Under the pieces are notes generated by a model. That model did no database searches and was not told the origin of the DNA. It saw nothing but the letters and a program-made list of their open reading frames with translations. A program made the translations under genes and the position numbers. Source: a virus (taxonomy: Duplodnaviria; Caudoviricetes). Taken from it: DNA of 61,572 nt. This document shows, piece after piece, positions 4,071 through 45,900 of the stretch. The stretch is taken from IMG/VR virus record IMGVR_UViG_3300025836_000010, positions 1 to 61,572 of that record; one strand, 5' to 3'. How positions within the stretch are numbered: position 1 is the first letter of the stretch; every line of letters starts with the position of its first letter.

Positions 4071-5242
4071 GCCTTCACGACGGCGAGCGGCCGCAGTTTC
4101 TTCGTGATCCGCACGAGGTCCGCTTGATTGGCCATCACAACGTCGATGTCATGGTACGCCTGCCGACATTCCTCGGCAACGTCGGCCTTCTTCACCTTGT
4201 ACAGGGCGATGTCCGCGGCCTCCATCTCGGCGATCACGTCAGCGGCTGGAATCGCCCTCTGCGCGGCCTTGCGCCCCATCGCCCGCCCGGCCCCGTGTGA
4301 ACATGACATGAACGACTCGCGATTGCCCAGGCCCTCGCCGATGTAGCTGGTACTGCCCATGCTGCCAGGAATGATGACCGTCTCGCCGTCGCGCGCCCTG
4401 ACGGCTCCCTTCCGGTGCACCATCACGTTCTTGCCGAAGTGGTTTTCCATGGTCGCGTAGTTGTGGTGTATGTCGATCTCGTCGCCCCATCCGATGCCCT
4501 CGCGGTACAGCACGCTCTGAATGGCGTGCATCATGTGCTCGCGGTTGAGATAGGCGAAGCGCAGGCAGGCGTTCATCTCGGCGAGGTAGGCTTGGCCCTC
4601 GTCTGAATCGAGCGGCAGGAACGCCAGTTCGTGATCCTTGGGCACCGACGAATGCCAGCGCGCGTTCATCTCGATGGCGAGTGCGTTGTAGTGCTTGGCG
4701 ACTTGGAAGCCGACGTTGCGGCTACCTGAGTGGAGCATGAACCACGCCATGTCGTCTTCGTCTGCCTGCGCCTCGATGAAGTGGTTGCCGCCGCCAAGGG
4801 TGCCGATCTGAGTCAGGGACTTCTCGTACTCGCGCTCCAGTATGGGCAACCGTCCGTCTTGGCCGTTGATCAGTTCCTGTCCGGCCCAGTCGGGTTGCTC
4901 TTCCTGGTGGTGACTGAAGCCGGTCGGGATCGCGCGCTGGATATCGTGCATGATGGCTTCGCGCTTCGCCATGAACTCGTCGACTGTGCATTCGAGCGGC
5001 CATGTTCTCATCCCGCAGCCGATGTCAACGCCGACCGCATTCGGGATGACGACTCCCTGTGTGGCGAGCACGCCGCCTATCGGCATCCCGTAGCCCTGAT
5101 GTGCGTCGGGCATGATGGCGACGTGGCGGAAGGCGAAGGGGAGATCGGCAAGATGCCGCGCCTGCTCCATCGCGCCCTCTTCCATGTCGTCCGTCCATAT
5201 CTTCAGCGGCACGCGTCCGGTGGCATCAATCTGCATGGTCAC
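4067..5242 (-). CDS. rtcB: RtcB-family 3'-phosphate/5'-OH RNA ligase
   Basis: MPDAHQGYG, VGVDIGCG, GTLGGGNHFIE, LHSGSR, HHNYA, HRKGA, IPGSMG, SHGAGR motifs. Confidence 0.96.
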   Translation of the reverse strand: MTMQIDATGRVPLKIWTDDMEEGAMEQARHLADLPFAFRHVAIMPDAHQGYGMPIGGVLATQGVVIPNAVGVDIGCGMRTWPLECTVDEFMAKREAIMHDIQRAIPTGFSHHQEEQPDWAGQELINGQDGRLPILEREYEKSLTQIGTLGGGNHFIEAQADEDDMAWFMLHSGSRNVGFQVAKHYNALAIEMNARWHSSVPKDHELAFLPLDSDEGQAYLAEMNACLRFAYLNREHMMHAIQSVLYREGIGWGDEIDIHHNYATMENHFGKNVMVHRKGAVRARDGETVIIPGSMGSTSYIGEGLGNRESFMSCSHGAGRAMGRKAAQRAIPAADVIAEMEAADIALYKVKKADVAEECRQAYHDIDVVMANQADLVRITKKLRPLAVVKA

Positions 5243-5520
5243 CCCACCTCTATCGCCAGCGCGTGTTCATCCACCGCCCGGATGGCCCGATTCAGCGTGT
5301 CGATATTCGTCACCAACGGGTTCCGCGACATCTTCGTGTAGCAATCCACCTCCGTCTTCAGGTTCGCCAGCTCGAGCTTCGCCGACATCGAGCGGATGTT
5401 CTGACGGTGGGCGCGGCTTCTCCGCTGTAGCCGGTCCACCTCGGTTGTCAATGCGGCGATGTACGCCATGGACTCGGCCTTGGCCATCTTGCCGACTTCT
5501 GATTTGGTAAGGATGTTCAC
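5239..5520 (-). CDS. coiled-coil hypothetical protein
   Basis: Coupled between the two ligase genes. Confidence 0.7.
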   Translation of the reverse strand: MNILTKSEVGKMAKAESMAYIAALTTEVDRLQRRSRAHRQNIRSMSAKLELANLKTEVDCYTKMSRNPLVTNIDTLNRAIRAVDEHALAIEVG

Positions 5521-6527
5521 GTGGTCCCCCTTGGGTCTAGTGTCACGGTTGAGTTAGCGCCCGTGATCGGGTCTGTAACCGTTATGGACGAGAGTTTCTG
5601 TGGTCCCGGGTCCGCCTCTTTCTCATCCGCGAACACATCCGCCATCAGTCGCTCCTTGTACCATTCGGGCGCCCCGGCGACGGACTTCCGCAACAACGCG
5701 CCGCCGAACTCCCGCCAGAGGAAGTCCTTGATGGTGTCGATCTCTTCCTCCGTGATGTCGCGCTGAATCTCCTTGATGAGCGGCCCGATGTCGCGCGGGG
5801 CGTTCTCAAGGCGACCGTCGTCGCGCAGGTGCTGAACGGCCTTCTCCCACCGCGCCTCGCTCCGGTATTGGTCCTGGAACACGTCCCACTTTCCACGCGC
5901 CGTGTTCTCGATTCCCCAGTTCTTCTGGTGCTTCTCCTTGAACGCCTCGCTGACGTATTTGCCGCACATGAGCGGGATCGGTTGGCCGCCTAGCAGAAAC
6001 GGGCGCTGGTAGTTCTTCACGACCACGCCCTCGACGGTGGTGCCGCCGAGGTAACTGTCCGTGGCGAGCAGTTCTTGGAGTTGCGCCACAGCCTCGACCT
6101 TGCCCCGGTACAGGAGCGGTACCGCTTCCAGCCCGATGCTCGCCGCCAGATCGGCAAGCTCGCGCCAGTCCGAGACGAAGGTGCCCCCTGGCGTGCTGGC
6201 GCCGAAGACGGCGATGTTGTTCTGCGGGACGCACTCATACGCCAAGGTGTTGTGCTTCGGCTTGCGCAGATACTCGCCGTAGAAGATCACGTTGTTGGGC
6301 AAGTCGAGGCTGAGCACGTAGTCGGCGGCCAGATCGAACATCCGGTCGACCGCGCCGGCGTGCTGTTCCTTGCCCTTCGACCGCATGTGGAGTTCGCCGC
6401 TGACCCGCCCAAACACCCACTGCGAGCCGTCGACCTTCTCGGTCACCTCCACGTCGTCCTTGAACAGGTCGGCGATGTAGTCCTGGCCGATGGAGAATAT
6501 CTTGGGGAACGCGCTGAATCCCACCAA
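5517..6527 (-). CDS. ATP-dependent RNA ligase, Rnl2-like
   Basis: Nucleotidyltransferase motifs: I EKVDGS, III FYGE, IIIa VFG, IV EGVVVK, V KYVSEAFKE; N-terminal FSAFPKI; AGGAGG SD. Confidence 0.85.
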   Translation of the reverse strand: MVGFSAFPKIFSIGQDYIADLFKDDVEVTEKVDGSQWVFGRVSGELHMRSKGKEQHAGAVDRMFDLAADYVLSLDLPNNVIFYGEYLRKPKHNTLAYECVPQNNIAVFGASTPGGTFVSDWRELADLAASIGLEAVPLLYRGKVEAVAQLQELLATDSYLGGTTVEGVVVKNYQRPFLLGGQPIPLMCGKYVSEAFKEKHQKNWGIENTARGKWDVFQDQYRSEARWEKAVQHLRDDGRLENAPRDIGPLIKEIQRDITEEEIDTIKDFLWREFGGALLRKSVAGAPEWYKERLMADVFADEKEADPGPQKLSSITVTDPITGANSTVTLDPRGTT

Positions 6528-7462: not shown

Positions 7463-8338
7463 TCAGCCCAAGCGAGCTGCGCGGAGCCGGCGGTATTTCA
7501 GTAGCCCAGCCTCGCCAGCCAAGTACGCGAACGCCGCAGCCATCGAGTGAGGACACTGTGCGTTACCGAGGCCGCGCAATCTGTCCACTCTGGCGGGAAT
7601 CCCTGCAGCCACTCGACCCACAGGGGCGAGAGTGATCCAGGGGTCGACTTCGTATCCGTCACCGTCTGCGCGTACAGCGTGTCGCTCGTCTCGCGGCTGT
7701 TCCTGCGGCCGGCACACTGACTGTCCTCGGCTCGCGGGGTCGCATACGTCTGCCGGGTCGCACCACCACGGGCTACCGCCACATTCAGCGGGTCCGAGTT
7801 GCGCTCCCACTGACTCGGCCCCGCGTCGTTCTTCGCATCCTGCGCCGTCACGGTAGGCCAGTATCCACAGCCGCTTGCGCCGATGCGGGGCACCGACATC
7901 GTCCGCTCCCAGCACGCACCACTCCGCATCGAACCCCGCTTCGGAAAGGTCGCCGAGGATGCCGCCGAACATGCTTCGTCCGGCAGCATCGCGGCTTGTG
8001 AGGAGACCGGGTACGTTCTCGAAGAACCCGAGGGGAGCGTCACTTTCTCGCAGTACGCGAAGGGTGTCAGGCCAGAGGTCTCGGGAGTCCAGTCCGCCGA
8101 GGCGGTTGCCGGCTTGGGAGTGCGGCTGGCAGGGGAAGCCACCGGTGACGATATCGCACGATCCGGGGACGGGGCGGAAGTCCCGCACGTCCAAGTGGCG
8201 GGGTACGTCGGGGAAGCGGGCGGCGAGCACTCTCTGGCAATAGGCGTCGTGCTCGACGAACTGCACGGGCTCCCATCCGAGGATAAGGCTGCCGAGCAGG
8301 CCGCCGCCGGCTCCGGTGAAGAGGGAAAGTTCTCGCAT
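7463..8338 (-). CDS. DNA cytosine-5 methyltransferase, alpha-type chain lacking motif IX
   Basis: Motifs I SLFTGAGG, IV GGFPCQ, VI ENVPG, VIII HRRKRLWI, X LRGLGNA; AAGGAG SD. Confidence 0.9.
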   Translation of the reverse strand: MRELSLFTGAGGGLLGSLILGWEPVQFVEHDAYCQRVLAARFPDVPRHLDVRDFRPVPGSCDIVTGGFPCQPHSQAGNRLGGLDSRDLWPDTLRVLRESDAPLGFFENVPGLLTSRDAAGRSMFGGILGDLSEAGFDAEWCVLGADDVGAPHRRKRLWILAYRDGAGCEERRGAESVGAQLGPAECGGSPWWCDPADVCDPASRGQSVCRPQEQPRDERHAVRADGDGYEVDPWITLAPVGRVAAGIPARVDRLRGLGNAQCPHSMAAAFAYLAGEAGLLKYRRLRAARLG

Positions 8339-8355
8339 GGGTCTCCTTCGTCCAT
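7498..8355 (-). CDS. overlapping alternate-frame beta chain of the C5 methyltransferase (TRD + motif IX); start uncertain
   Basis: Same-strand open frame with WPTVTAQDAK/YATPRAEDS and LSPLWVEWLQGFPPEWT (motif IX-like), as in M.EcoHK31I-type enzymes. Confidence 0.75.
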   Translation of the reverse strand: MDEGDPCENFPSSPEPAAACSAALSSDGSPCSSSSTTPIARECSPPASPTYPATWTCGTSAPSPDRAISSPVASPASRTPKPATASADWTPETSGLTPFAYCEKVTLPSGSSRTYPVSSQAAMLPDEACSAASSATFPKRGSMRSGACWERTMSVPRIGASGCGYWPTVTAQDAKNDAGPSQWERNSDPLNVAVARGGATRQTYATPRAEDSQCAGRRNSRETSDTLYAQTVTDTKSTPGSLSPLWVEWLQGFPPEWTDCAASVTHSVLTRWLRRSRTWLARLGY

Positions 8356-8361
8356 GCACCA

Positions 8362-8390
8362 ATCATGGCGCACGGATGTGGGGACGGAGG
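8362..8390 (-). promoter_or_regulatory. phage-specific promoter copy 2 (CCTCCGTCCCCAC-N10-CATGAT)
   Basis: Perfect 13-mer at 8378-8390; -10 at 8362-8367. Confidence 0.75.
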
Positions 8391-8394: not shown

Positions 8395-9549
8395 CTACAG
8401 TATCGCGGCGATGATGTCCCTGACGCGATCCATAGTTTGCGGGTCGACATGCGAATACGTCGACTGCAGCACGCGCGACGAACTTTGACCGAGGATGCGG
8501 GACAGCTCCTCGTCCGGTATCAGCCCCCGCAGCCGGGTCGCATACGAGTGCCGGCAAACGTAGGGCGTGAGTCCCGCGAACTCGCTGCCCGCGATCAGCC
8601 TGCGCCACGCCAGCCGGAACGCCTGCACCGTCCATGGCCCGCCGGGGTTCTTACGCGGGTCCAGCGACGGGAACACGTAGCCGACCTCCGACCATCTGCC
8701 GAGCCGCAGCTTGTACTCGGATTGCCGGGCCTTGTGCGCCTTCAGCATGGAGATCAGGTTCGGCGGCAGGGGCACGTCCCGCTGGCCGCGCCTCGTCTTG
8801 GTCGTCTTCCGCCGCGGCTCCCGGCCCCGCGCCGCCTCGAGGTTGTGGTAGACGTGACAGGTGCCCGCCTTCGCGTCGATGTCCTGCCACAGTAGCGCCA
8901 TTGCCTCGCCGGGGCGGACTCCGGTGCCCAGCATGAACATGGTCGCGTCATGCACCTGCTGACGACGTTCGGTAGTCATGTGACCACAATCAGTAGTCGC
9001 CATGTGCCTCAGCAGCGCCTGGGCCTCGTCGGCGCTCAGTGCCCGCTTCTCCTGCGTGTCGATCTGCGGCTTGTCCCGCCGCCTCAGCGACGAGCAGGGG
9101 TTGCGGAACAGGAGGCCGTCGGTCGTGGCCTGGTCGAGAATCGTGGCAAGCAGATTGGCGACCTTACGAGCGGTGGTTCCGGACAGGCCCGCATCCGCGA
9201 GGTCGCCATGGAATGTGCGGACGACCATCGGCGTGATGTCGACGAGCTTGTAACCGCCGAGCCGGGGCGTGATGTGCGCGTCCAGTATGTAGGCGTGGTG
9301 TTGGTGGGTCTCCGGCGAGCCGCGGCGCAGTGATTCGGCGTACCAGTGATCGGTGTACTGTTCGAACTGTCCTGATTTCCCTGACAGTTGCCCCCTGTCG
9401 CGCTTGGTGAGCAGTTGCCGCTCCAGCCGCTTGGCTTCGGCCTCGGTGCCGTGGACGGTCCTCGAGATAGCCTGTCGCTTGCCGTCGGGGCGCGGGCTGG
9501 CGCGCAGACGGACGCGGTAGAGGCCGGGGGCTAGGCGGTGGACGCTCAC
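8395..9549 (-). CDS. int: tyrosine integrase
   Basis: N-terminal arm-binding-like domain (DGKRQAISRTVHGT), SAM-like domain, TGVRPGE, YVCRHSYAT, LGQSS, TYSH; GTGA-coupled start. Confidence 0.9.
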   Translation of the reverse strand: MSVHRLAPGLYRVRLRASPRPDGKRQAISRTVHGTEAEAKRLERQLLTKRDRGQLSGKSGQFEQYTDHWYAESLRRGSPETHQHHAYILDAHITPRLGGYKLVDITPMVVRTFHGDLADAGLSGTTARKVANLLATILDQATTDGLLFRNPCSSLRRRDKPQIDTQEKRALSADEAQALLRHMATTDCGHMTTERRQQVHDATMFMLGTGVRPGEAMALLWQDIDAKAGTCHVYHNLEAARGREPRRKTTKTRRGQRDVPLPPNLISMLKAHKARQSEYKLRLGRWSEVGYVFPSLDPRKNPGGPWTVQAFRLAWRRLIAGSEFAGLTPYVCRHSYATRLRGLIPDEELSRILGQSSSRVLQSTYSHVDPQTMDRVRDIIAAIL

Positions 9550-9833
9550 TTGGGCTTGTGCTTGGCAATTTCCTCTTCGGCCAAGTCGCGCCGTATCCAT
9601 TCCGTGCCAGTAGGACCCCGCAGAACGTGCCCGCGCTCAGCCTCGTATGCGCTCTTGTACTTGGCCGCGAGGCGGGCGAGGGCGAGGATGGCGGCGTCGT
9701 CAATCTCAATGATGTTGAGCGCATGTTGATGAGATGCCTTGGCGTCGTACCAACCACGGGACATGCCGACCTTTTCCGCCTCCGCACACTCCACGCCCGC
9801 CGCCTTGAGGACTTCTCTCGGATCGTCAGTCAT
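9546..9833 (-). CDS. small hypothetical protein (DDAAILALA variant of modular family)
   Basis: Coupled ORF in the int operon. Confidence 0.65.
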   Translation of the reverse strand: MTDDPREVLKAAGVECAEAEKVGMSRGWYDAKASHQHALNIIEIDDAAILALARLAAKYKSAYEAERGHVLRGPTGTEWIRRDLAEEEIAKHKPK

Positions 9834-14755: not shown

Positions 14756-15757
14756 TCACGTCGTCACCGCCAGTTGCATCTGATCCCGGTGCGGTGCGAT
14801 CCGCCGCTCGGCCATCTCGGCGTACTCCGGGTTCAGTTCGATGCCGACGAAGTTGCGGCCGAGGCGACAGGCGACCACGCCCGTGGTGCCGCTGCCGGCG
14901 AAGAAGTCGGCGACGGTGCCGCCAACGGGGCGGCCCGCCAGTACGCACGGCTCGACCAGCTTCTCGGGGTAGGTGGCGAAGTGAGCCTCGGGGTACGGCT
15001 GCGTGGCGATGGTCCAGACATCTCGCTTGTTCCGCGTCGCAGGTGGCGGGCCCGAGAAGTACCGTTCGTTGAAGCCCGCGTGTCGTCTGCCGTGGCCATC
15101 CTGCTTCGTCTGACCGGGTACGTCGGTACGAGGTGAACCCGTCACGTCATGCCACGAGCGGCCGTCAGTGGGTTCGGCTATGGCGTCGGAATCGTAGTAG
15201 TAGCGCGCCTTCTTCGTGAGCATGAAGAGGTACTCGTGGCTCGACGTGCATCGGTCCCGCACGCTCTCGGGCATACACGAGGTTTTGGCCCAGATGATGT
15301 CGCTGCGTAGGTACCAGCCGTCGTCGCGAAGGGCGAGCGCGACCGTCCACGGTATCCCGACCAGGTCCTTGGGCTTGAGGCCAGCGACGATTGTGTTGCG
15401 CTTCGTTCCCGCACCAGAGTCCATCGTCTTCTGGTAGCGCGCAGAGTTGCGCCCCCCATGCAGCCCGGTCGTTTCCGGCGTGAACCCCTTGCCGTTGCCC
15501 GGTGGTGTACTCGCATACGAATCGCCGAGGTTGAGCCACAGCGTGCCGTCGTCTCGAAGGATTCTGCGCACCTCGCGGAACACGGCGACCATGTTGGCGA
15601 CGTAGAGTTCGGGGGTGGGTTCGAGGCCGAATTGCCCGTCTGTGCCGTAGTCGCGCAGCCCCCAGTACGGCGGGCTGGTCACGACGCAGTTGACGGACCC
15701 GGCTTCGAGCGTCGGCAGGATGTCGAGCACGTTGCCGACGTGGACGATGGCGCTCAC
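14756..15757 (-). CDS. beta-class N4/N6 DNA methyltransferase
   Basis: VTSPPYWG, IIWAK, HFATYP, DFFAGSGTT, GIELNPEY. Confidence 0.92.
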   Translation of the reverse strand: MSAIVHVGNVLDILPTLEAGSVNCVVTSPPYWGLRDYGTDGQFGLEPTPELYVANMVAVFREVRRILRDDGTLWLNLGDSYASTPPGNGKGFTPETTGLHGGRNSARYQKTMDSGAGTKRNTIVAGLKPKDLVGIPWTVALALRDDGWYLRSDIIWAKTSCMPESVRDRCTSSHEYLFMLTKKARYYYDSDAIAEPTDGRSWHDVTGSPRTDVPGQTKQDGHGRRHAGFNERYFSGPPPATRNKRDVWTIATQPYPEAHFATYPEKLVEPCVLAGRPVGGTVADFFAGSGTTGVVACRLGRNFVGIELNPEYAEMAERRIAPHRDQMQLAVTT

Positions 15758-16197
15758 GCCGTCATCTCCATCTGCCCGAACTCCCCCAGTATCTCGAGGC
15801 AGCCCGCATGCACCCGCCGCTCCCAGCACGGCGAGCAGTAGACGCCCCCCTGCAGGATGTGGTCGCGGGCCAGGTACGCGACGCAGCCCGGCGTGCCACA
15901 GCGGATCGGTGGCAGCGGTACCCGCGGATGGATACCGAAGTCGGGGTCGAACTCCAGCAGGCACGGACACGGCCTCATGGTGGTCATCACGTACATGCCG
16001 CCGCGGTGCGACCCCGGCTGGTTCACGTTCACGATGCGGAACCCGTCCGCGACCAGTGCCCCGAGCGCCTTGTGTATCTGGCGACGCGCCGACCCTCCCC
16101 ACTCCATGCCGGCCAGTTCGGCCAGCGCGAATGTGGTGCAGGGACGGGTCGAGAGTGCGGCGACGATGGTGGTGCGGAGGTAGGCGGATGCGCTCAC
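15754..16197 (-). CDS. winged-HTH plus Cys-rich hypothetical regulator
   Basis: GTGA coupling; TTFALAELAG...RRQIHKAL; CGTPGC...CSPC. Confidence 0.6.
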   Translation of the reverse strand: MSASAYLRTTIVAALSTRPCTTFALAELAGMEWGGSARRQIHKALGALVADGFRIVNVNQPGSHRGGMYVMTTMRPCPCLLEFDPDFGIHPRVPLPPIRCGTPGCVAYLARDHILQGGVYCSPCWERRVHAGCLEILGEFGQMEMTA

Positions 16198-17151: not shown

Positions 17152-17399
17152 CCCTCGACCAACTTCCGCACGCTGGAAGTCGACACCAGGAACCCAGGCA
17201 CGTCCTCAATCCGCCGCAGTTTCCCGGCCTTGACGAGCCTCTTGACCGTGGCTGCGGAGGAGTAACCAAGCTCGACCGCTGTTTGCTCGATGGTCATGGT
17301 CGCTGGCAGTATCGCCCAGTGGTCGATCTGGACGATGACGTTCGGACCGCCGGGGGCCGCGCCGGCTACGGCTTCGCGGAGGAGGGAGCGGGCGGTCAC
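17148..17399 (-). CDS. excisionase-like HTH protein
   Basis: MTIEQTAVELGYSSAATVKRLVKAGKL; GGAGG SD. Confidence 0.7.
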   Translation of the reverse strand: MTARSLLREAVAGAAPGGPNVIVQIDHWAILPATMTIEQTAVELGYSSAATVKRLVKAGKLRRIEDVPGFLVSTSSVRKLVEG

Positions 17400-18607
17400 G
17401 CCAGCGCCTCCTTCACGGCCCACGCCTTGAACTCGGCAGCCTCGCCGTGGGTGAGTTCCGAGTTCCCGCGACCGCCGAAACGCTTGCGGTACTCCTTCAC
17501 GGCCGCGCCGTCGACGTGGGCCAGCGCCTCGCTCAGCAGCTTCTTGTCGCCGGTGGTCGCGGGCCGCTTCGGGTCGTCGGTGGCGAAGAGTGCGCCGCGT
17601 CCTGGCATTGTGCCGTCTGAGGCGATTGGGCCGCTTTCGGCATCGGTGGTAATGTTGAGGGTTTCGACGCCGCCCTGTGGCTCCCGTGAAGCCTCAGCCG
17701 TATGCGGGGCGTCGTCGGTGAAGCCGATGTCGTCGTCGTTGACCTCGCCGGTCACGGGGTCGACGGTGGCTGGCGGCGCTTGCTGCTTCGTCGGCATCGT
17801 CGCTAGGCCCGCCATGAGCGACTCCCACACGACGTGGGGCATCCCGGCCAGCTCGCCGGTGTACTTGGCCTTGGCGGCGAGGTTCTTCTTCACCTCGACT
17901 TCGCTTATGTCGACGCGCTTCATCTCAGCCAGCAGTGCGTCGTACTCGTCTTGGCCGATGATCTGGCCCGTCTCTTCCTCGACCGCCGTACCCTCGTAAT
18001 CAGCGGTCCCGCCCTCGATGATCCGCTGTGCCTCGTCTTCGTCATAGATGCCGCCGAAGCCGAAAGCCTCACGGATGCCTTGGATGCGGGCCTTGTGGCG
18101 CAGCATGCGCTTCGTGTGGCTCTGCCACGGTCCTTTGTAGCCGTTTCGTGGCGGCACGTAGCACTCGTCGAGATACTCGCGATGCACGGCCGGGACCTGG
18201 CGGCCCTTGATGTGGATGCTTACCTCCATCCACTCGGGGCATGGCTTGGCGTCTTTGTCGATCTGCACCATGTTGTCCGACGCGGTGACCTCCTCACCGA
18301 GGAAGTCTTCGCGTGGTTTCCCGTCGGGGTGGTGAGTCTCCAGATGATTCCAGCCGTCGATTCCAACGATGGGCACGATGGCGCCCTTGTCGACGAAGCC
18401 GTGGATCTGCTTGGTCCACACGTCGAGGCCGTAGCGGTCGGCGATCGCCAGGAACATAGCGAGTTCCTCGTCGGTCGCTGGCCGGTCTTTGGTCTTGAGC
18501 ACGGTCGCCTTGACGACCTGCTTGAAGTATTCAGGCGAGAGCCCGAGCGGCGCGGAGAACTTCTCGAGCAGCGTCACTGCGGTGCCTGGCTTGCCGGTGG
18601 TCGTCAT
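17396..18607 (-). CDS. bet: Bet/RecT-family single-strand annealing recombinase
   Basis: TDEELAMFLAIA.RYGLD, PIVGIDGW, EYLDEC, PWQSHTKRMLRHKA.IQ.IR.AFGFGGIYDEDEA. Confidence 0.9.
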   Translation of the reverse strand: MTTTGKPGTAVTLLEKFSAPLGLSPEYFKQVVKATVLKTKDRPATDEELAMFLAIADRYGLDVWTKQIHGFVDKGAIVPIVGIDGWNHLETHHPDGKPREDFLGEEVTASDNMVQIDKDAKPCPEWMEVSIHIKGRQVPAVHREYLDECYVPPRNGYKGPWQSHTKRMLRHKARIQGIREAFGFGGIYDEDEAQRIIEGGTADYEGTAVEEETGQIIGQDEYDALLAEMKRVDISEVEVKKNLAAKAKYTGELAGMPHVVWESLMAGLATMPTKQQAPPATVDPVTGEVNDDDIGFTDDAPHTAEASREPQGGVETLNITTDAESGPIASDGTMPGRGALFATDDPKRPATTGDKKLLSEALAHVDGAAVKEYRKRFGGRGNSELTHGEAAEFKAWAVKEALA

Positions 18608-22929: not shown

Positions 22930-23676
22930 TCAGCGGACCTCGTCCACGACGCCGAGGCGGAGACTCTCGTCCGAGTCCAGCCACCAGTCCTTGCGCCGCC
23001 AGCGGTTGGCAAACTGTTTGGCGGTCAAACCCGTCTTTGGCTGCGCCTTCAGCGACCGCTTGCTGAAGATGGCCAGAACGCGGTCCTGAATCTTGCGCAC
23101 GAACGCGACCTCGTCCTCGACCTCGCCGATCTTGCCGCCCGCGCCGAAACTGACCTCATGAATAAGGACATATGCCTCGCGTCCCATCACGCGCACGTCG
23201 CCGGCCTGCAGCAGTATCCCGGCCATGCTCGCCGCGTAGCCGATGGCGACCGTCGTGATTTTGTGGCCCTTGCCACGCAGGAACATCAGGTAGTCGAACA
23301 GCGCCATGCCCGCGATGACCTCGCCGCCGGGGCTATTTAGGATGATCTCGATGTCGCACTTCGGGCTGTCGCGATTCCAAAACGACAGTTCCCTGACGCA
23401 ACTGGCAACGGACGACTCAGAAACCTTGCCGAGAAACTGGTAAACATGGTGGTAGTTGTCCTGGGCCAACTCGCGCTTGCGCAGTTCCAGTGTCCGCTGC
23501 AACTCGATGGCTCCGGACGCGGCACCATGCTCGAACAGCAGCGCCTCGGCTGACATCTTGCGCGCCTCGGCCTCGCTCTTCGCCGCTTCAGCAAGTGCCG
23601 CGACGGCCTCGGCCTGCGCCTTGGCGACGTTGGCCTTGACCTCTTCTGGACTAAGCTCTCGGGCCTTTTCCGTCAT
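22930..23676 (-). CDS. clpP: ClpP-family serine protease with N-terminal coiled coil
   Basis: LNSPGG, GYAASMAG (Ser), LIHE (His), RKDWWL (Asp), GVVDEV. Confidence 0.9.
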   Translation of the reverse strand: MTEKARELSPEEVKANVAKAQAEAVAALAEAAKSEAEARKMSAEALLFEHGAASGAIELQRTLELRKRELAQDNYHHVYQFLGKVSESSVASCVRELSFWNRDSPKCDIEIILNSPGGEVIAGMALFDYLMFLRGKGHKITTVAIGYAASMAGILLQAGDVRVMGREAYVLIHEVSFGAGGKIGEVEDEVAFVRKIQDRVLAIFSKRSLKAQPKTGLTAKQFANRWRRKDWWLDSDESLRLGVVDEVR

Positions 23677-23720
23677 TTGTCACTCCCCCGGTTTGGATTC
23701 GGTATGATCCTCATGCGTCC

Positions 23721-23749
23721 AGTTTAGGCGGTCAGAGTGGGGACGGAGG
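23721..23749 (-). promoter_or_regulatory. phage-specific promoter copy 3 (CCTCCGTCCCCAC-N10-TAAACT)
   Basis: Perfect 13-mer at 23737-23749; extra partial copy at 23756-23765. Confidence 0.8.
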
Positions 23750-23774
23750 GGAATGGTGGGGACGGCCATGAATA

Positions 23775-23854
23775 TGGTGGAGCCGGACGGATTTGAACCG
23801 TCGTCCCCGGGTTGCCCATCAGGCTTTGGCCCAAGTCGAAACCAATTCGGCCCC
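23775..23854 (-). ncRNA. tmRNA tRNA-like-domain-only RNA (80 nt)
   Basis: GGGGCCGAATTGGTTTCGAC...GGACGACGGTTCAAATCCGTCCGGCTCCACCA; G3:U70, A73, CCA, T-arm, ssrA-type D-loop, short P2a; no mRNA-like domain. Confidence 0.88.
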
Positions 23855-24080
23855 ATATTGCTGAGCGGCCCCCATGTCATTACCAGCCGCTCGCTGCCCT
23901 CGCGCCTTTTTCCGTCTCGTGCCGCATTGCGATAACTCGAACCGGCTTGTGGACGGTCGCCGTCTCTGGGGCGTCCCCCATCGCGAGTGCCCGGCACCGG
24001 GATTGAACAGCTCGGGCCGCATTACCTAAGCAGGCCCTTCTCACCGGCATAGCATTGTGTACAGGTGTCCACACTTGCGG

Positions 24081-24968
24081 CTAACTGTGGGCACTTGTTA
24101 CCAAACCCCCCTTGCCGCAGAGTGCCGTATCCTCGTCTTGAGACGCGGTTGCGGGACTCACTAGCTCGTCGCCGAACCTATCAACCAGGTCATAGAACTC
24201 GCCATCGGACCATTCCTCGGCCCGTTCCCTGCGCAGCCCTGGCGAATCCTTCCGGAATACCTCGTCTCCGTGTTCGTCCGCGCCGATCCCGAGTACCCTG
24301 ATGAGCGTCATCCCGCGCAGCTCATCGTCGCTGAGCACGTCCGGGCGCGGAGAGTGCAGGTCTTCGATGTGCCGGGCCAGCCACAGCGCCTGCTTCCACA
24401 ACGGGACGCTGAGTGTTTCCTCTTCGGCGTCCGATTCCCGTTTGGGCAACAGTACCGATTCCGGCCCGTAGTCGAGGTCCGTCACGGCCCCGCACTCGGG
24501 GCAGGACTTGACAGTCACGGGGCCAACGTCAATGCCGGCTATCGCGGCCTCCGTGTAGAAGTCGACGGTCGGGTGTTCGCGCGACCCCTCGGACACGCAA
24601 CTTTCTACGTGTTCGGGCACTGCGTTGACAACGGAATCCGTTACCTGCGCAGCCTCGTCGCACCCCGTCGCGTGCGGCATGTTCGGCGCGGAGCGGCAAT
24701 CGGGGCACTGGTCCGCGCAGAAGGTACTACTCTCGGTAGTGCCGACTGCGCGCTCCGGTCCGTCGCTTGGGTACCGCTCGCTCGGCCAGCAGTCCTGGTA
24801 CGTTGGGTCGGGATTACTGTCATTCCGTTCGCGTAAGGTCGCAGATTCAGGTAGTTCTGGCGTTGGCACGGGCACATAGCACTCATCTCGCCAATGCCAG
24901 GCGGGAGGTGTCGAGGTGCTCTGGACGCGGCTCCCGGTTGCGTCCTGAATCTCGCCGAGGCATCCCAT
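24081..24968 (-). CDS. hypothetical protein (low-complexity N-terminus, CxxC, helical C-terminal domain)
   Basis: Long ORF within the operon. Confidence 0.6.
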   Translation of the reverse strand: MGCLGEIQDATGSRVQSTSTPPAWHWRDECYVPVPTPELPESATLRERNDSNPDPTYQDCWPSERYPSDGPERAVGTTESSTFCADQCPDCRSAPNMPHATGCDEAAQVTDSVVNAVPEHVESCVSEGSREHPTVDFYTEAAIAGIDVGPVTVKSCPECGAVTDLDYGPESVLLPKRESDAEEETLSVPLWKQALWLARHIEDLHSPRPDVLSDDELRGMTLIRVLGIGADEHGDEVFRKDSPGLRRERAEEWSDGEFYDLVDRFGDELVSPATASQDEDTALCGKGGLVTSAHS

Positions 24969-27454: not shown

Positions 27455-30400
27455 TTCTCGTCTCTCCTGACCGCAGCCTTCCAGCCGCTCGGTTGCATGT
27501 CTGCCTGCCATCCATTCGCGCGCAGCCGCGCCGCCCACACCTCTGCCTGCGTCTCCACCGACCAGCCCTCGCGCAGGAGCCGCGCGTTCCAGCCGCTTGG
27601 AACGAGGGTGACGGTGAAGACCATGTCGGGCCACCACACTTTGCCCTCGCCGCTGACCTTGACCTTCGTCGTGGTGAGGGCGCCGGTCCCGGTCGTATAG
27701 ACGGCCGTGGTGCCGATGCCGGCGACGTTGGCGGAGGTGGCGCATAGGCTGCCCGCGCCGAACGTCCTGGACGTGCCCTGGCCCTGCACCCGCGCCGCGC
27801 CCACGGTGACGGTGCCAGTACCGCTGGTCTTGGTCTGTCCGATGCCCGCAACGCTCGTTGCCGCTGCCGTGACCACTCCGGCGCCGACAAAATGGACCGT
27901 GCCCGCGCCGGTGACCGTCGAGGCTCCGGCGGTCAGAGTTCCAGTGCCGAGCGTCTTGGCCGCGCCCGAACCTGCGATCTTAGACTTGCCTGCGGTGAGT
28001 GCGCCGGTTCCTAGAGTCTTCTCAACGCCCGCGCCGGATGCCGACGCCTTGCCGGTCGTCAGCGCACCGGTACCGCTGACGGCGGACGGTGCGGTCGCCG
28101 TGCCTGCCCCGGAGACGGAAGCGCCTGCTGTCGTGAGTGCGCCGTATCCCGAAGTCTCGCCGGGAGCCGTGGCTGTGGCTTCGCCTGCGACCACGACCGT
28201 GGCCGTGGTAAGCGAACCTGTGCCGCTTGTCTTGCTGCCGCCGACGCCGCTTGCAGTCGCGCTGGCGGTTGTGAGCAAGCCCGTGCCAACGGTCGTAGTC
28301 TTGCCCGAACCCGTGACGGAGGCGGTCGCCGTGGTGAGTCCGCCGAGGGCGATATGCTGCCAGTCGCCGACTCCCGCAACTGCGGTGACCGCGACGGTCA
28401 GCGCGCCGGTGCCGCTGGTCTTCGCGGCTCCGCTACCGGAGACGGAAGCGGTGCCCGTCGTCAGAGCGCCGCTGCCTGCGGTCTTCTCGCTGCCCGCTCC
28501 GACTACGGCCGTGGTGGCGGTCGCGAGGGAACCCGCGCCAATGTTCTTGAGCTTGCCTGCGCCCGCGAGGCTGGCCGTACCCGTAGCGAGTACGCCGCTG
28601 CCGTCCGTGGCCGCCGGGACGGTAGCCTCGCCCGCGCCAGCAACTGCGACACTGCCCGTCGTGACGGTGCCCGTCCCCGATGTCGCACCAGGGGCCGTGG
28701 CCTGCGCGGTGCCGTCGACCGTGATATTGGCCGTCGTGAGAACGCCCGAGCCGCTGAGGATCGTGGTGCCTGCGCCGCTCGCCTGCGCCGCTCTCGCGGT
28801 GATCGCGCCTGCGCCAGCCACCGTGGTCTTACCTGCACCCGCCACGGAAGCCGCAGCGGTTGTGAGGCCGCCTATCGAGACGTACTCGGTGTCGCCGATG
28901 CCCGCGACGCTGGCGGCACCCGCTGTGAGCGCGCCAGTCGCTGTGTGCAGCGGTGCGCCGGCGCCGCTGACGGAGAAGGCGGGCACGTCGCAGGTACCGG
29001 CACCGAGCAGATGAACGTCGCCGCTGCCCGCGAGCGACGCGGCTGCCGTCGTGAGTGCGCCAGAGACGCCCGCAGCCTCGGTCTCGAAGTCGACCTCGTC
29101 GCCGTATGCGGTGCCGCCGGCGTTGGTCGCGTAGGCGCGGACGTGGTAGACGGTGTCTGCGTCGAGGTCGGTGAGCGCGCTAGCGAAGGAGATGCCGGAG
29201 GTGCCCGTGCCCGCGAGGCTCGCGGTACCCGCAGTGAGTGCGCCGGTACCTGCGGTCTTGGTAGCGCCGACGCCCGCGACAGATGCTGCAGCGGTAGTTA
29301 GCCCGCCGACTGCTACGTCTTCGGTATCGCCGACTGCGGCTACGCTGACTGTTGCAGTCGTAAGCGCACCTGTACCGACGAAGTACGCGCTACCGACGCC
29401 GGTCGCCGTCGTCGTCGCGGCCGTGAGCGCACCCGCGCTCGTAAAGTGTACCGCGCCGCTGCCGGTGGCCATAGCCGCTCCGGTGGTCGCGGCACCAGTA
29501 CCGATGTTCCTGAAGGTGCCCGCCGCGCCGAGACTCGCGGCTACGGTCGTCAAAGCCCCCGCGCCAGTCGTCTTCTCGCTGCCCGTACCCGCAACGGCAG
29601 CGACTCTCGTCGTGAGCGTGCCTGTGCCCGAAGTCTTGACCGAACCGGAACCGACGATGGCGGCGGCACCTGTGGTGAGCGCACCGGAACCGTTGGGCGT
29701 GCCGACCTCAGTGTCGAACTCCTCGACGTTACCGTAACTGGTGCCCGCCGAGTTGGTCGCGTAGGCGCGCACGTAGTAGTGCGTGTCGGCGGCAAGGTCG
29801 GTGAGGAAACTATCGAACTCGAGCCCGACGGTGCCGCTGCCCGCGATAGCGGATGCGGCGGTCGTGAGCGTGCCCGTGCCCGCGTCCTTGAGTTGACCGG
29901 CCCCTGCGACCTGCGCTGGCGCCGTGGTCAATCCGCCGATAGCGATGTCTTCGGCGTCGCCTGCTCCAGCGGTGCTCGCTGCCGCCGCCGTGATCGCGCC
30001 GATCCCGACAAAGTGCGCTGCACCTGAGCCGGACGTCGAGGCGGCGCCTGTGTCCAGGCTGCCTGCGCCAGCATTCTTGAGCTTCCCGCTACCCGCGACC
30101 GTCGCCGCGGCGCTGGTCAGCCCGCCAGTCGATATGTACTCGTTGTCGCCGACACCAGAGACCGCCGCCTTGCCCGTGGCCAGAGCGCCGCTGCCGGAGG
30201 TCTTCTCGGTGCCAGCACCGATGGCAGATGCCCTGCCTGTGGTAACTGCACCTGCCCCGGCGAAGTGTGCGGTCCCGATTCCGGCGACAGAGGCAGCACC
30301 AGCAGTCAAGGAGCCGCTGCCACTCAGGATCGTGCGCGTTCCGCTGCCGGATACTGCAACTGCACCGACCGTAAGGCCACCTGAGCCAGAGACCTTCGGC

Positions 30401-41414: not shown

Positions 41415-42947
41415 TCATGCCGCCGTCGCGATGTTCGACGGCGCGGAGATGTTCAGGTCTTTGTCGATGGCGGCCATGCGATAACTGCGCGGGCCGGTCG
41501 TGGGATCAGGCCAGCTAGTCACGGGGTCGCCCGCCGCGTCCCTTGCCCAGACGACGGCCTTGGGCTGCGACTGATTACTGTCGTAGACGAGGTAGGCGAG
41601 CAGGCGCGTGGGGTCGGCCTTGCTGCTCGGGGTCCAGGTCCAGCCGCCGCCGCCGGGGCCGGGGGCTACCCCGCCCCCGTAGAGGAAGAGGCGGCCGCCG
41701 ACAACTCCCGCCAACAGCACCGAACCGTCGGCGTTCACGGCGCAGCAGTACCATTCTTTATACCCGAGCGCGGGAGGATACGTCTCGGCCCAGCTTGAGC
41801 CGCCGTTCGTGGAGAGGTAGACATGGCCGCCGGTGTAACTCCCCGCCAACAGCACCGAACCGTCGGCGCTCACGGCGCAAGTGTGCCAATACTGGTTTAT
41901 GTTCCCGGAAGTCTCAGCCCAGCTTGAGCCGCCGTTCGTGGAGAGGTAGAGGAGGCCCCATTCGACCCCCGCCAGCAGCACCGAGCCGTCGGAATCACAA
42001 GCACAGGCGATCCACCCCTTACTCACGTCCCCGGCAGGCTGCATCTCGGCCCAACTCGAGCCGCCGTTCGTGGAGAGATAGAGACGGCCGGTGCTGACTC
42101 CCGCCAACAGCACCGAGCCGTCGGAATCACAGGCGCAGGAGTACCACCACGTATCCACGTTCCCGGCAGGCTGCGTCTCAGCCCAGCTTGAGCCGCCGTT
42201 CGTGGAGAGATAGAGACGACCGCCGGAGACCCCCGCCAACAGAACCAGACCGTCGGCGCTCACGGCGCAGGAACGCCAAGACGCATCCTTCCTGATAGGC
42301 TTCGTCTCGGCCCAACTCGTGCCGCCATTGGTGGAGAGCCAGAGGCGGCCGGGGAAGGCCCCCGCCAACAGCACCAGACCGTCGGCGCTCACGGCGCAAG
42401 TGAGCCAGTCCCCAGACACCCCGTCAGGTCGGGCATCGGCCCAGCTTGAGCCGCCGTTCGTGGAGAGGTAGAGACTGCCGCCGGTGTAACTCCCCGCCAA
42501 CAGCACCGAACCGTCGGCGCTCACGGCGCAAGTGTTCCAATACTGGTTTATGTCCCCGACAGGCTGCGTCTCGGCCCAGGTTCCAGCCACTGCCGGCGTC
42601 TCCGCCGCTCCCGCAGCAAGGCCCCCCGGCACAGTCGGCGGAATCCGGTCCACCGGCGGCGAATGCGGCGTCGCAACCGTGAACTTCGGCCCCACAGCCG
42701 TCAGCGTCGTCTCGGCCGCGTCATCCGCCCCCTGCACGCTGTAGTGGTAGACGCGGCTCGGCTGGACGGCGTTGTCGATGTACGCTTCGGCCTCAGTCTT
42801 GCCGACGACCCTCGCGTCGCTGCCGTTACCCATGAGGCCGCGAGACACGACGAAGTGGTGATAGGGGCGGCTGTCGTCAGCGCGGAAGGTCGGGCCGAGT
42901 TGCCCGTCCCAGGCGATCATCACGCGGTCGTAGCGTGCCCACTGCAT
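41415..42947 (-). CDS. tail protein: FN3 domains with inserted 7-blade BNR/Asp-box propeller
   Basis: Seven CAVSADGSVLLAG...LYLSTNGGSSW repeats between PPTVPGGL and WTPS...YRMAAID..NISAPSN. Confidence 0.75.
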   Translation of the reverse strand: MQWARYDRVMIAWDGQLGPTFRADDSRPYHHFVVSRGLMGNGSDARVVGKTEAEAYIDNAVQPSRVYHYSVQGADDAAETTLTAVGPKFTVATPHSPPVDRIPPTVPGGLAAGAAETPAVAGTWAETQPVGDINQYWNTCAVSADGSVLLAGSYTGGSLYLSTNGGSSWADARPDGVSGDWLTCAVSADGLVLLAGAFPGRLWLSTNGGTSWAETKPIRKDASWRSCAVSADGLVLLAGVSGGRLYLSTNGGSSWAETQPAGNVDTWWYSCACDSDGSVLLAGVSTGRLYLSTNGGSSWAEMQPAGDVSKGWIACACDSDGSVLLAGVEWGLLYLSTNGGSSWAETSGNINQYWHTCAVSADGSVLLAGSYTGGHVYLSTNGGSSWAETYPPALGYKEWYCCAVNADGSVLLAGVVGGRLFLYGGGVAPGPGGGGWTWTPSSKADPTRLLAYLVYDSNQSQPKAVVWARDAAGDPVTSWPDPTTGPRSYRMAAIDKDLNISAPSNIATAA

Positions 42948-45900
42948 CAGTAGGACGTCCGCTTGCGGTCATTGGCGAGGCGCGTGAACTCGGGCTTCAG
43001 GCGCCGGACAAGTTGCCGCTTCTCGCGCTCACTCGGCTCGCCGGTCAGGGTCTGCCATGAGACGTTCACATCCACGCTTCCGCCGGGGGTGCTCGCCATC
43101 GCGGGGACGGCGGCGAGGGCTGGAACGGGCGCAGTGTTCATCGCGTTCACGGAATTGGCCGATACCTCGACCATGGACGCGAAGATGTCGCGTAGCAGGG
43201 TCACGGCGTCAAGCGCGGTCTGCAGCTTGGTCGCATCGGGGATGATGTGCAGGGCGCCGACGATGCCGTTGATCATCTGCGTGAGGGCGCTGCCGATGCC
43301 CTGCCAGAGATTGCCGTAGGTCATGGTGGCGAACTTCTGCAGGTTGGCGGCCATGTCGGGAAGTGAGGCGGCGAGATCGGCGATGCTTCCGATGACGCTG
43401 ACCATGGTACCGATGAAGCCCATCTTCTCGGACTTACTCTTCAGCATCTTGTCGTCCCAAATCGCGAACTGTTTGAGGACGCCTCCGACGCCTTCGATCA
43501 TGGCTGTGCCGAACGCGGCCCAGTTCTGGCGCATGGTCGTGATGATGGTCTTGGGGGCGTTCGCGAAGTAGGACAGGATGTCGCCGAGGGGGCCGACCAT
43601 CGCGCCGATGAGGCCCATGCGGTCGCCCTTCTTGCCGAGCATCTCGTCGCTCATGTCCTTGTAGACCTTCAGGACCTCCTCGACGGCCTTCTTGATGACG
43701 ACGGCGAGGGAGTGCCACTTCTGCGGGATGACGGCCACAGCTTTGTCGGGTGCCTCGACAAACATCGAGATGATGGAACCGAGACTGCCCGCCATGCCCG
43801 CTACGGAACCCGCCCGAGTCGCACTGTCGCCGAGCTGCTTCGTGGACAGTTTCTTGAAGACCGCGAGGACTTGATCGACGGCCGACTTGACAACCTTCGC
43901 CAGCGCCTTCCACTTCTGCGGGATGATCTTCACGGCCTTGTCGGGGAGATCGGCAAGGGCAGAGATGAAGCTGCCGATGCCGCCCGCCGCCGAGCCGATG
44001 CTGCCGATACGCTCGGCGTTACCGGCGAGGCCCTTGGTGCTGGTTGCGGCGAAGACGTTGAGGACTGCGGCGAGCGCCGCACTCAGCACGGTCGCCAGCT
44101 TCTTCCACGCCTGCGGGATGATCTTCACGGCCTTGGCCGGCATGTCGGCCATGGCGCCGATGAAGCTGCCGATGCCACCAGCCGCGCTGCCGACCGAACC
44201 GGCGCGTTCAGCCTGCTTGGCGAGGCCCTTGTCGGTGAAGACCGAGAGGACTGCGGACAAGGCTGATGCCAGCGTTGCCGCGAGACTGTGCCACGCCTGC
44301 GGGATGACCCTGACGGCCTTCTTCGGCATGTCGGCGAGCGCCGAGATGAACGACCCGATGCCCCCTGCCGCAGTGCCGATACTGCCCATGCGTGCGGCGT
44401 CCGCGACTAGCATTTCGTCGCTCATCTGCGCGAACGCGGCGTTCACCTGCATCATGGCGTTGAACAAAGCGACGCCGAGCGCGGCAAAGTTCTGTTGTAG
44501 CGGCCTGAGCGCCTTCTTTGGCGCGTCCGCGAATACGGACAGGATGCTGCCCAGTGCGCTGGTGATGCTCGCGAGGCTACTCATGCGCGTGCCCCAGAGC
44601 CCGACCAGTTCGTCGGTCAGGGACGCGAAGCCGCTATTGAAGGCGATCATCGCGTTGAATGTCGCGGCGCCAATCCCGGCCCAGTCGCGGTTGAGAATCT
44701 CGATGATGTTCTTGGGGATGGATGCGAGTGTGTTGGTTAGGTCGGCCCCGGCCGCGGCGGTTTCGGCGGCCGTCTTCTGGACGTCCTCGACGATGGTCGC
44801 GCCCTTGAGCATGATCTCGGTCCCGGCCTTGTCGAGTCCCATCCACCCACCGGCGACGGCCTGACTCTTGCTCATGCCCACTGGGCCGGACATGCCGGGA
44901 ATCTGGACGTTGATTATCGCGAGTGCGTCGGCGGCGGCCTTCAGCGCCTCCTTGGCCTTCTTTGCCTTTGTCGCCGTATCGTCCAATGCGCTTGGGTCGA
45001 TGTTCAGGAGTTGCTGCGATAGCAAGGCTACGGCTGGGGCCGCGATGGTGCCGAGTCCCTTCAGATCGTCGATGGCCCCGACGATCTTCTTCTTGCCCTC
45101 CGCCGTGAGGGGCCCCTTGTCGAATATGGCCTGGGTGGTGTCCAGGATCTTCCCCGCGGCCTTGGCCACCTCCTGATCGGACTTCTCTCCCAGAAGGTGC
45201 TTCCACTGGGCCTCGAGGTTGGACGTCATCCTGCTCAGTCCGAGTGCCGGGCCTTTGGTCTGCTCATCGAGGGACGCCATGACGTCGGATGCCATGAGAT
45301 CGGCGAACTCTTGGTACCTGTCCGACAACACGCCGAACTTGTCGGCTATACGCTCCAGGTTCAGAGTGACTGCATCGGCGAAACCCTTGGTGGCATCCGC
45401 GGCCTGTTTCTCGGCGTCTTTCCACTCCCTGTAGAACGGCCTGACCAGAAGAAAGGCCGCGCCCGCGGCGGCAGCGGCGATGATGAATGGACCGAACGAC
45501 ACGGCGGCAGATGCGATGCCAGCGCCCAGGGAACGGAATGCACCGCCGGTCTTGGCCGCTACTATGCCGAGCCTGCTCACGGGCTGCTCTGCCTTACCGA
45601 TCGTGCCGAGCGTGGGTGCGAGGCCGGCGGCGGATCCCGCCTTCTGCATGGCCGAGAGGTCTTGCGCCTTGAAAGCCGCATTCAGGTCTGCCTGCCTGTT
45701 CATTCGCGGAGATGCGTAGGGAGCGCCCATCCCGCCCAGGCTGCCGCCAGCGCGCGCCGCGTTATTGGCCACCAGCGCAGCGGTGTCGGCGTCGATGGCG
45801 GCCGTCTCTCCCGCCCAGCCCATGGTTTTCAGCGCACCCTTGAACGCCTGCGCCGACTGCACTGACTTGGTGAAGATGAGGGCAATGGCACCGAGGGGGA

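Follow-up and report, generated by a model that had tools for sequence, protein, structure and literature searches.

Trans-translation is the main route of ribosome rescue and quality control in bacteria and is an antibiotic target. On the minus strand of the phage genome IMGVR_UViG_3300025836_000010, 80 nucleotides (nt) at positions 23775 to 23854 read like a transfer-messenger RNA (tmRNA) reduced to its tRNA-like domain (TLD), and the locus raises the question of whether this is a genuine RNA gene and what such a molecule could do in the infected cell. The window, meaning the whole stretch of DNA that was analysed, is the entire viral record of 61,572 bases; it is rated 100% complete and carries nearly all of its genes on the minus strand. 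The analysis revealed that the RNA, here called the mini-tmRNA, is a further member of a known, under-annotated type of TLD-only tmRNA. In print this type rests on one phage; the census below found it in at least 119 viral contigs with one search pattern and in 56 with another. A natural, compact phage RNA directed against trans-translation, or replacing it, would be a ready-made probe of that route. The window's own addition is modest, namely one more well-formed member, whose conserved leader and ClpP-like neighbour offer leads.

Structure of the mini-tmRNA gene

The element comprises the following parts, where position i of the RNA is window position 23855-i.

23775..23854, minus strand: mini-tmRNA (TLD-only tmRNA) gene, 80 nt with encoded CCA, from Rfam and the family model
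23848..23854, minus strand: 5' strand of the acceptor stem, GGGGCCG (RNA 1-7), pairing with CGGCUCC at 23779-23785 (RNA 70-76)
23835..23847, minus strand: stemless ssrA-type D-loop AAUUGGUUUCGAC, containing GG.UUCGAC (RNA 8-20), aligned to the Rfam tmRNA consensus
23807..23834, minus strand: helix P2a, UUGGG/CCCGG (RNA 21-25/44-48), with the enclosed 18-nt insert (RNA 26-43)
23803..23806, minus strand: GGAC connector (RNA 49-52), aligned to the Rfam tmRNA consensus
23786..23802, minus strand: T arm GACGG-UUCAAAU-CCGUC (RNA 53-69), with a 5-bp stem and a 7-nt loop
23775..23778, minus strand: discriminator A73 (RNA A77) and encoded CCA (RNA 78-80), read from the sequence

The acceptor stem consists of seven pairs, including G3:U74 (G3:U70 in tRNA numbering), and P2a of two U.G and three G-C pairs. 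The insert reads CCAAA-GCC(UGAUG)GGC-AA, which is an A-rich bulge followed by a 3-bp mini-hairpin.

The initial annotation, made from the letters alone, had described an 80-nt minus-strand tmRNA consisting only of the TLD and had proposed an Infernal search with the tmRNA model. Sequence, coordinates, strand and parts were all found as described, and the covariance-model search matched Rfam RF00023 (tmRNA) at both ends of the model (positions 1-374) with 65.1 bits and an E-value of 3.9e-23, compared with a gathering score of 47 bits. A score of this size places the match far beyond chance. The 18 nt of the insert replace 312 internal positions of the model, and the posterior marks were 7-9 or * where the D-loop, the GGAC connector and the T arm align to the consensus. 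The mini-tmRNA was the sole Rfam match at the gathering score in the window, with the same outcome for 23650-24120 at E<=10. The model for permuted tmRNA, RF04321, reached only 14.2 bits, and the RNA is a contiguous, non-permuted TLD.

Other readings of the element were rejected. It is not a canonical tRNA-Ala, since it has neither an anticodon arm nor a D stem, ARAGORN made no such call, and Rfam clan competition retained the tmRNA. Nor is it a complete tagging tmRNA: it has no resume codon, tag frame or stop codon, only 18 nt lie between the P2a strands, and pseudoknots PK1-PK4 and the long P2 are missing together with the 312 model positions. ARAGORN, applied to the whole window, returned no tmRNA call and no tag peptide at the mini-tmRNA. 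A one-codon tag frame in the insert (GCC followed by UGA) was dismissed on the grounds that the related loci L015 and L028 have no in-frame stop there and, by structural reasoning, that a loop carried by a helix of 5 bp could not extend as far as the decoding centre.

Family census and covariation

A strict pattern, a TLD with a 10-40-nt insert, returned 6 viral contigs. A relaxed pattern returned at least 119; the loci retrieved from them contained 92 unique elements, which measure 63-87 nt as far as the discriminator. A third pattern, which had a 29-nt insert and was anchored only in the D-loop, T-loop and GGAC, returned 56 contigs with 43 unique cores. Once aligned, at least 115 unique element sequences had the same compact design. 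This usually consists of an acceptor stem, a D-loop, a P2a of 5-8 bp, an A-rich bulge, a mini-hairpin of 3-4 bp, GGAC and a T arm, and the 18-nt insert of the window conforms to it. Among 96 elements, the inner stem reached at least 3 bp in 82%, compared with 49% in shuffles of those segments, and the first four bases of the bulge were 62% A. CCA was encoded in 48 of the 92 listed elements from the relaxed pattern and in 19 of the 43 found with an unconstrained acceptor.

A family covariance model, R1, was built from 53 viral-contig sequences, including that of the window and excluding that of Mycobacterium phage DS6A, the one published case. The model scored the window at 74.1 bits over 23778-23854 and DS6A at 62.8 bits over 28478-28557; it recovered 83 elements in 100 sources and gave 39 matches in 41 further sources. 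Covariation among homologues, which the initial annotation had named as a check, was then counted on the R1 alignment of the 83 homologues: 94.7% of cells were paired, compared with 63.6% in shuffles and 44-59% with slid partners. The acceptor stem was 97.2% paired. P2a was 91.3% paired, and all 7 of its modelled pairs had changed on both sides in some sequences. The T stem was paired in 100%, with 3-5 standard pair types at each of its 4 pattern-free pairs, and the partly modelled inner hairpin (2 pairs) was 82.1% paired. The alignment is fitted to R1 and so leans towards it; the MAFFT-only alignment of 82 elements concurs, with 90.7% of 14 pattern-free pairs formed as against 62.5% in shuffles. 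The poorer count for acceptor pairs 5-7 in the MAFFT alignment (86.9%) proved to be an artefact of pattern register, as 83 of 92 elements have 7/7 pairs in their best register.

The family score of 74.1 bits and the covarying acceptor, P2a and T stems indicate, at the level of sequence comparison, that the RNA is a real, selected gene and not decay debris. The reading of the element as a tmRNA reduced to its TLD is thus backed by Rfam, the family model and covariation. The initial annotation had held that random decay of a full ssrA among homologues would speak against it; the homologues instead keep compensatory pairs and a strict alanine identity.

ARAGORN called no element as such in 60 family loci. 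In one of the loci (L062, 5905-6228, minus) it made a 324-nt tmRNA call with the tag peptide AWDYNPMWVQCSA*, sharing its 3' end with the TLD-only element at 5908-5987; this call may be spurious or may reflect a second 5' half upstream. At another (L138, 3354-3426, minus) R1 gave a weak second match of 25.2 bits (E 0.0078), 1.8 kb from the strong one, which may be a degenerate copy or a tRNA. The contexts of the elements vary, from sites beside DnaB helicase genes (10 of 92 listed loci) to the interval between prohead protease and capsid genes and to tRNA arrays, and no neighbour family exceeded 10 of the 92. tRNA genes were present in 14 of the 60 loci and within 100 nt of the element in 10.

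Conservation of alanine identity

The G3:U70 pair, A73 and the CCA end are the determinants that make an RNA a substrate of alanyl-tRNA synthetase (AlaRS). The window RNA carries the full set, with a 7-bp acceptor stem. Since the first patterns forced GGGG...CUCCA, the scan was made with the acceptor left free. In the 43 unique cores obtained with acceptor and discriminator unconstrained, G3:U70 and A73 were each present in 43/43, all seven acceptor pairs in 42/43, G1:C72 and G2:C71 in 42/43 and G4:C69 in 39/43, and acceptor pairs 5-7 and the spacer length varied. The results point, as far as sequences can, to strong purifying selection on the features for alanine charging. Such strictness suggests a role for charging and so opens the mechanism to direct tests; the published idea of SmpB titration does not require charging.

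Close relatives and natural variation

The search for close relatives used the flanking genes as queries, not the RNA. The loci L015 and L028, whose ClpP-like proteins are 79% and 75% identical to that of the window, carry 80-nt elements scoring 64.7 and 68.2 bits with Rfam. Their gene order is ClpP-like gene, leader, RNA, and that of the window is leader, RNA, ClpP-like gene. A search of metagenomes with the leader motif yielded two more, L179 and L184. The L184 RNA keeps the acceptor stem of the window and has 1 difference in the 18-nt insert, and its P2a, UCGGG/CCCGA, has U-A and C22-G47 where the window has U.G pairs. At T-stem pair 2 it has C-G as against A-U in the window, a compensatory change.

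Natural variation was read from contigs of four peat/soil runs over 23300-24400 (1,101 nt), for which 40 of 66 variant places were listed. Only 1 of the 40 lies inside the RNA, 23807 C>T (RNA G48A), which turns U21.G48 into U-A. Elsewhere, the listed variants numbered 0 in the leader, eight in 23572-23626 and eleven in 24004-24041. A 498-nt contig of run X4 matched only 23775-23855, with 9 differences, which indicates that the same community holds a homologue in a different setting. A contig of run X2 passes directly from 23844 to 24113, and the 268 nt that it skips include the leader and the first 10 nt of the RNA; it may represent a differently arranged relative or an assembly artefact.

Conserved leader and neighbouring genes

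The mini-tmRNA occupies a 404-nt gap between two same-strand genes, and a conserved leader precedes it.

23865..24003, minus strand: conserved leader of about 140 nt, directly 5' of the RNA
22930..23676, minus strand: ClpP-like serine protease gene, 98 nt downstream (Pfam CLP_protease 89.6 bits; phrog_94)
24081..24968, minus strand: open reading frame (ORF) of 295 amino acids of no family (no PHROG or Pfam match), with relatives in 4 viral contigs

The leader is non-coding, 110-146 nt long, and has seven homologous loci in metagenomes, 4 of them with a mini-tmRNA. It was located at 5155-5300 in L015, 4794-4924 in L028 and 4213-4345 (minus) in L179, and in a minimal form of 110 nt at 1423-1532 (minus) in L184, 1041-1150 (minus) in L185 and 32-141 in both L186 and L177. 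A core of about 50 nt is nearly invariant among the window, L015, L028, L179 and the four loci with the minimal form, and an insert of variable length sits at one fixed point. The mini-tmRNA lies within about 350 nt of the leader, in variable order, in the window, L015, L028/L181/L183, L179 and L184. No mini-tmRNA was found in the 7.7 kb of L185, and in L177 and L186 the leader stands at the contig start, so that presence of the RNA cannot be judged there.

The leader had no Rfam match at E<=10. One of its hairpins shows a double compensatory change in L028, but two RNAalifold runs gave different folds, and compensatory changes appeared in only 2 of 27 pairs of the 8-sequence set. On these grounds no structure is claimed; the leader is possibly a structured RNA or a regulatory element. 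The 3' strand of its last hairpin (GGGGGCCGC, 23855-23876, minus) repeats GGGGCCG about 20 nt upstream of the RNA, and this repeat may compete for the 3' acceptor strand in the precursor or may be a coincidence.

The best tblastn matches of the ClpP-like gene were non-structural 'ClpP-like protease' genes of Mycobacterium phages, with 46-48% identity. A role as head protease was rejected, as the gene is some 30 kb away from the head module, where a separate prohead protease is encoded. Two of the top-matching phages, Gaia and Pumpkin, have no mini-tmRNA within +-8 kb of the gene; in Pumpkin, a polynucleotide kinase and an RNA ligase are encoded 3-7 kb upstream of it. The 295-amino-acid ORF does not stand alongside the RNA in L015 and L028.

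Across 152 listed loci bearing the element, RtcB was found nearby in 1, an RNA ligase in 0 and a ClpP-like gene in 5, equal to three contigs, and a general linkage of the mini-tmRNA to RNA repair or to ClpP was accordingly rejected. A ClpP-like gene near a tmRNA-type RNA was seen in the window's group, in L110 and in L023. The last holds a distant ClpP-like relative and a full-length tmRNA (195-607, 142.4 bits) 3.4 kb from it. The proximity of ClpP and mini-tmRNA is therefore regarded as lineage-specific synteny and a weak functional hint.

Phage genome and likely host

The genes identified, among them an integrase and a head and tail module, mark the phage as a temperate tailed phage on sequence grounds.

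55553-57298: terminase, in the head module (51793-57298)
54139-55413: portal, in the head module
53012-53755: prohead protease, in the head module
51793-53007: major capsid protein, in the head module
42947-46912: tape measure
17396-18607: RecT/Bet-type annealing protein; exonucleases were also identified
8395-9600: tyrosine integrase, 14 kb from the mini-tmRNA
5517-6527, minus strand: RNA ligase, forming an RNA-repair pair with the adjacent RtcB
4067-5242, minus strand: RtcB-type ligase

Three DNA methyltransferase genes were also present, all on the minus strand, at 7463-8362 (phrog_363), 14756-16102 and 59477-60673 (both phrog_67). A tRNA-Met (CAT) at 53813-53885, minus strand, between the portal and prohead-protease genes, was the sole ARAGORN call in the window. 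Rfam gave no full-length ssrA or other tmRNA match in this complete phage. Genes for SmpB, peptidyl-tRNA hydrolase (Pth) and RF-1-domain proteins numbered 0 each among the phage genes, and use of host SmpB is assumed because the phage has no SmpB gene.

DNA of the phage occurs in 20 listed metagenome runs, from peat, soil and one riverine source; no RNA run was among those listed. All matches of the endolysin among annotated phages (33/33) were actinophages, and those of the ClpP-like protein were led by Mycobacterium (328) and Streptococcus (170) phages. Identity to any annotated phage stayed below 38% for the terminase, 28% for the capsid and 29% for the integrase, and among 50,697 phage records searched with blastn none matched the RNA region. 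It is likely an actinobacterial soil phage, the matches to annotated phages being no more than hints of the host.

Proposed function and alternative explanations

The reading that we favour, with about an even chance of being right, is that the mini-tmRNA is an alanine-charged competitor of host tmRNA that acts via host SmpB and blocks or diverts degradation tagging. The tRNA-processing enzymes of the host would excise the RNA from a longer phage transcript, and host AlaRS would charge it with alanine. Bound by host SmpB, it would be brought by the elongation factor EF-Tu to ribosomes stalled at the ends of messages, where it would vie with the full-length tmRNA of the host. Because the RNA has no reading frame, no degradation tag would be added and the nascent chain would gain one alanine at most. 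The next stage could be a blocked ribosome or release via some other factor, that is, tag-less rescue, and the net effect would be that host trans-translation is blocked or diverted during infection or lysogeny. We infer processing, charging, use of host SmpB, ribosome entry and benefit to the phage; what the analysis itself provides is the RNA identity, membership in a large family, covarying helices and the conserved alanine identity. The dependence of phage-encoded tmRNA-family RNAs on host SmpB is described in passages of PMC4131195 and PMC9004378. The version with charging and ribosome entry is favoured since SmpB sequestration is reported to be independent of charging, yet the alanine identity is invariant. 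Among the functions that the initial annotation had offered, SmpB sequestration and tag-less acceptance of nascent chains are now the leading options, and no support was found for its suggestion of a toxin decoy.

Several points weigh against this reading. The inhibition reported in E. coli did not need chargeability, according to the account in PMC4131195; titration of SmpB may then suffice, and the conserved alanine identity would need another explanation. With no stop codon, the mini-tmRNA cannot itself end translation, so that a rescue role needs a further release step. Experimental data concern the DS6A type only, and the window RNA and the other family members are known from sequence. 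The single-sequence fold is not distinctive: its minimum free energy (MFE) was -30.8 kcal/mol with z = -0.75, 43 of 200 shuffles folded equally well or better, and the MFE fold does not show P2a, so that support comes from the covariance model and the homologues and not from thermodynamics. The census patterns fixed the D-loop (GG..TCGAC), GGAC and the T-loop, and conservation of these motifs is accordingly not evidence. Scanning of 23400-24400 for promoters and terminators gave 0 and 0 sites; transcription is therefore assumed to come from upstream. Two relatives, L014 (ClpP-like protein 88% identical) and L012, have no mini-tmRNA within the +-4 kb fetched, which implies that the gene is accessory or dispensable. 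Finally, a scan of genome contigs with the ClpP-like protein gave 1 locus, in a metagenome-assembled genome labelled as an archaeon, and neither a prophage relative nor a host.

The alternatives are taken in descending order of probability. The first, which we consider unlikely though it deserves attention, is that the RNA is a pure SmpB sponge that only titrates SmpB from host tmRNA, with charging and ribosome entry irrelevant. The TLD is the SmpB-binding region of tmRNA, according to the structural account in PMC3022190. A sponge would leave unexplained why G3:U70 and A73 are kept in 43/43 cores and G1:C72 and G2:C71 in 42/43 while pairs 5-7 vary freely, and CCA, encoded in about half of the elements, points to selection on aminoacylation, which a sponge does not need.

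True tag-less rescue is rather improbable. Here the alanine-charged mini-tmRNA and SmpB would take over the nascent chain, the ribosome would be recycled and proteins would survive untagged, which would be useful where host defence RNases cut phage messages. The strict alanine identity fits this explanation, as do the phage RtcB and RNA ligase, which are expected where a phage meets RNA-cutting defences. Peptidyl transfer to a TLD-only RNA in vitro, sensitive to kirromycin, is implied in the text of PMC3895274, which cites Shimizu and Ueda 2006; in addition, the database paper PMC11915505 describes, in the section concerned, mitochondrial tmRNAs without a tag frame that co-occur with targeted SmpB, and plastid forms of about 65 bp without a coding sequence (CDS) in Mallomonadaceae. 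The DS6A element, however, is reported in the relevant passages of PMC4131195 and PMC11915505 as an inhibitor and not a rescuer. RtcB, moreover, is a neighbour of the element in just 1 of 152 listed loci, and the RNA has no stop codon and the phage no gene for a release factor, Pth or an ArfB-type protein. We know of no release step for a TLD-only RNA, which also counts against this explanation.

A third explanation, to which we give a low probability, is that the element serves as punctuation, with RNase P and 3' enzymes cutting the transcript between the leader and the ClpP-like gene and the excised RNA having no role. The setting agrees with this, in that the 404-nt gap separates two same-strand genes and shows no promoter or terminator signal, and 10 of 60 family loci have a tRNA gene no more than 100 nt from the element. 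For processing, however, a minihelix of acceptor and T arm would be enough, and the alanine identity (43/43), the covarying P2a and the A-rich bulge would be needless; the form of the element is also kept in unrelated contexts (DnaB helicase in 10 of 92 listed loci, prohead protease and capsid genes, tRNA arrays).

The idea that the mini-tmRNA, the leader RNA and the ClpP-like protease form a module that re-programs the fate of unfinished proteins is hardly more than speculative. The charged RNA would enter stalled ribosomes, possibly repeatedly, adding alanine or alanines instead of the host tag, and the phage protease would then help to handle, or to spare, the alanine-bearing products. If this were true, phages would own a template-free, tmRNA-derived system of alanine tailing.

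It is very improbable that the RNA acts as bait or decoy, either for tRNA- or tmRNA-cleaving nucleases of the host or for other defences that sense RNA. The RtcB and RNA ligase of the phage and the RtcB-like ligase of DS6A would fit, and a phage anti-CRISPR protein is reported, in the portion of PMC11662646 concerned, to associate with tRNA and tmRNA fragments. The element lacks the anticodon loop, which is the usual nuclease target, RtcB and RNA ligase lie near it in 1/152 and 0/152 listed loci, and the data hold no link to a defence system. An inert remnant, either an ssrA captured from the host and internally deleted or an attP-borne 3' fragment of ssrA, has a negligible probability: ssrA is a frequent integration site of prophages, which carry its 3' part (passages in PMC10865867 and PMC9004378), and the phage has a tyrosine integrase, but both TLD halves are present and perfectly paired, the integrase (8395-9600) lies 14 kb off, and at least 115 unique homologues share the compact design with compensatory changes, with environmental variants keeping the pairing.

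Comparison with known systems

The initial annotation had suspected a precedent for TLD-only RNAs in phages, and this precedent is real. In the pertinent entry of PMC4131195, Hudson et al. 2014 include 'Mycobacterium phage DS6A (TLD only)'; citing Mao et al. 2009, they also state that tmRNA in E. coli is strongly inhibited by a DS6A-like molecule whether or not this can be charged, perhaps through titration of SmpB. The 2025 tmRNA database repeats this report in its text; of its 97,179 sequences, 9 are classed as 'Standard, no CDS' and 79 come from bacteriophages (PMC11915505). The full-text literature searched yielded no account of a phage TLD-only family beyond DS6A, and the supplementary tables of PMC11915505 and PMC9004378 may list more. 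Judged by the sequence census, TLD-only tmRNAs are much more widespread in uncultivated phages than the literature shows.

The DS6A element was located at 28478-28560 (JN698994), where it scores 43.2 bits on Rfam, under the cut-off of 47. The TLD-only type is already known, and the score of 62.8 bits with R1 supports homology between the two elements. Like the window RNA, it is a phage-borne contiguous TLD in which a short insert replaces the pseudoknots and tag frame, it has the acceptor stem GGGGCCG/CGGCUCC with A73, and each of the two temperate phages encodes an RtcB-type ligase, which in DS6A is gp76. Unlike DS6A, in which D-loop and connector are degenerate, the window keeps the canonical GG.UUCGAC and GGAC (65.1 bits). 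The two inserts show no relationship, only the element of the window encodes CCA, and the neighbours differ (gp33 and gp34 in DS6A).

Tag-less tmRNAs of jakobid and other mitochondria and of plastids, as presented in the corresponding part of PMC11915505, resemble the window RNA in that the tRNA-like part is kept and SmpB is encoded elsewhere. In contrast to it, they are chromosomal genes of the organelle, are mostly permuted and are the only tmRNA of their compartment, whereas a complete host tmRNA would be present alongside the phage RNA. Among phages, full-length tmRNAs such as those of Bxz1-type mycobacteriophages, Bacillus phage G and the marine two-piece forms have a tag peptide and pseudoknots, in place of which the window has 18 nt.

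Laboratory TLD constructs share the acceptor stem, T arm, D-loop and capped P2a, bind SmpB 1:1 in the co-crystal structures presented in PMC3022190 and are implied, in the text of PMC3895274, to accept peptide in vitro. These constructs are man-made, whereas members of the natural family carry, in addition, a mini-hairpin and a conserved A-rich bulge that lie beyond P2a.

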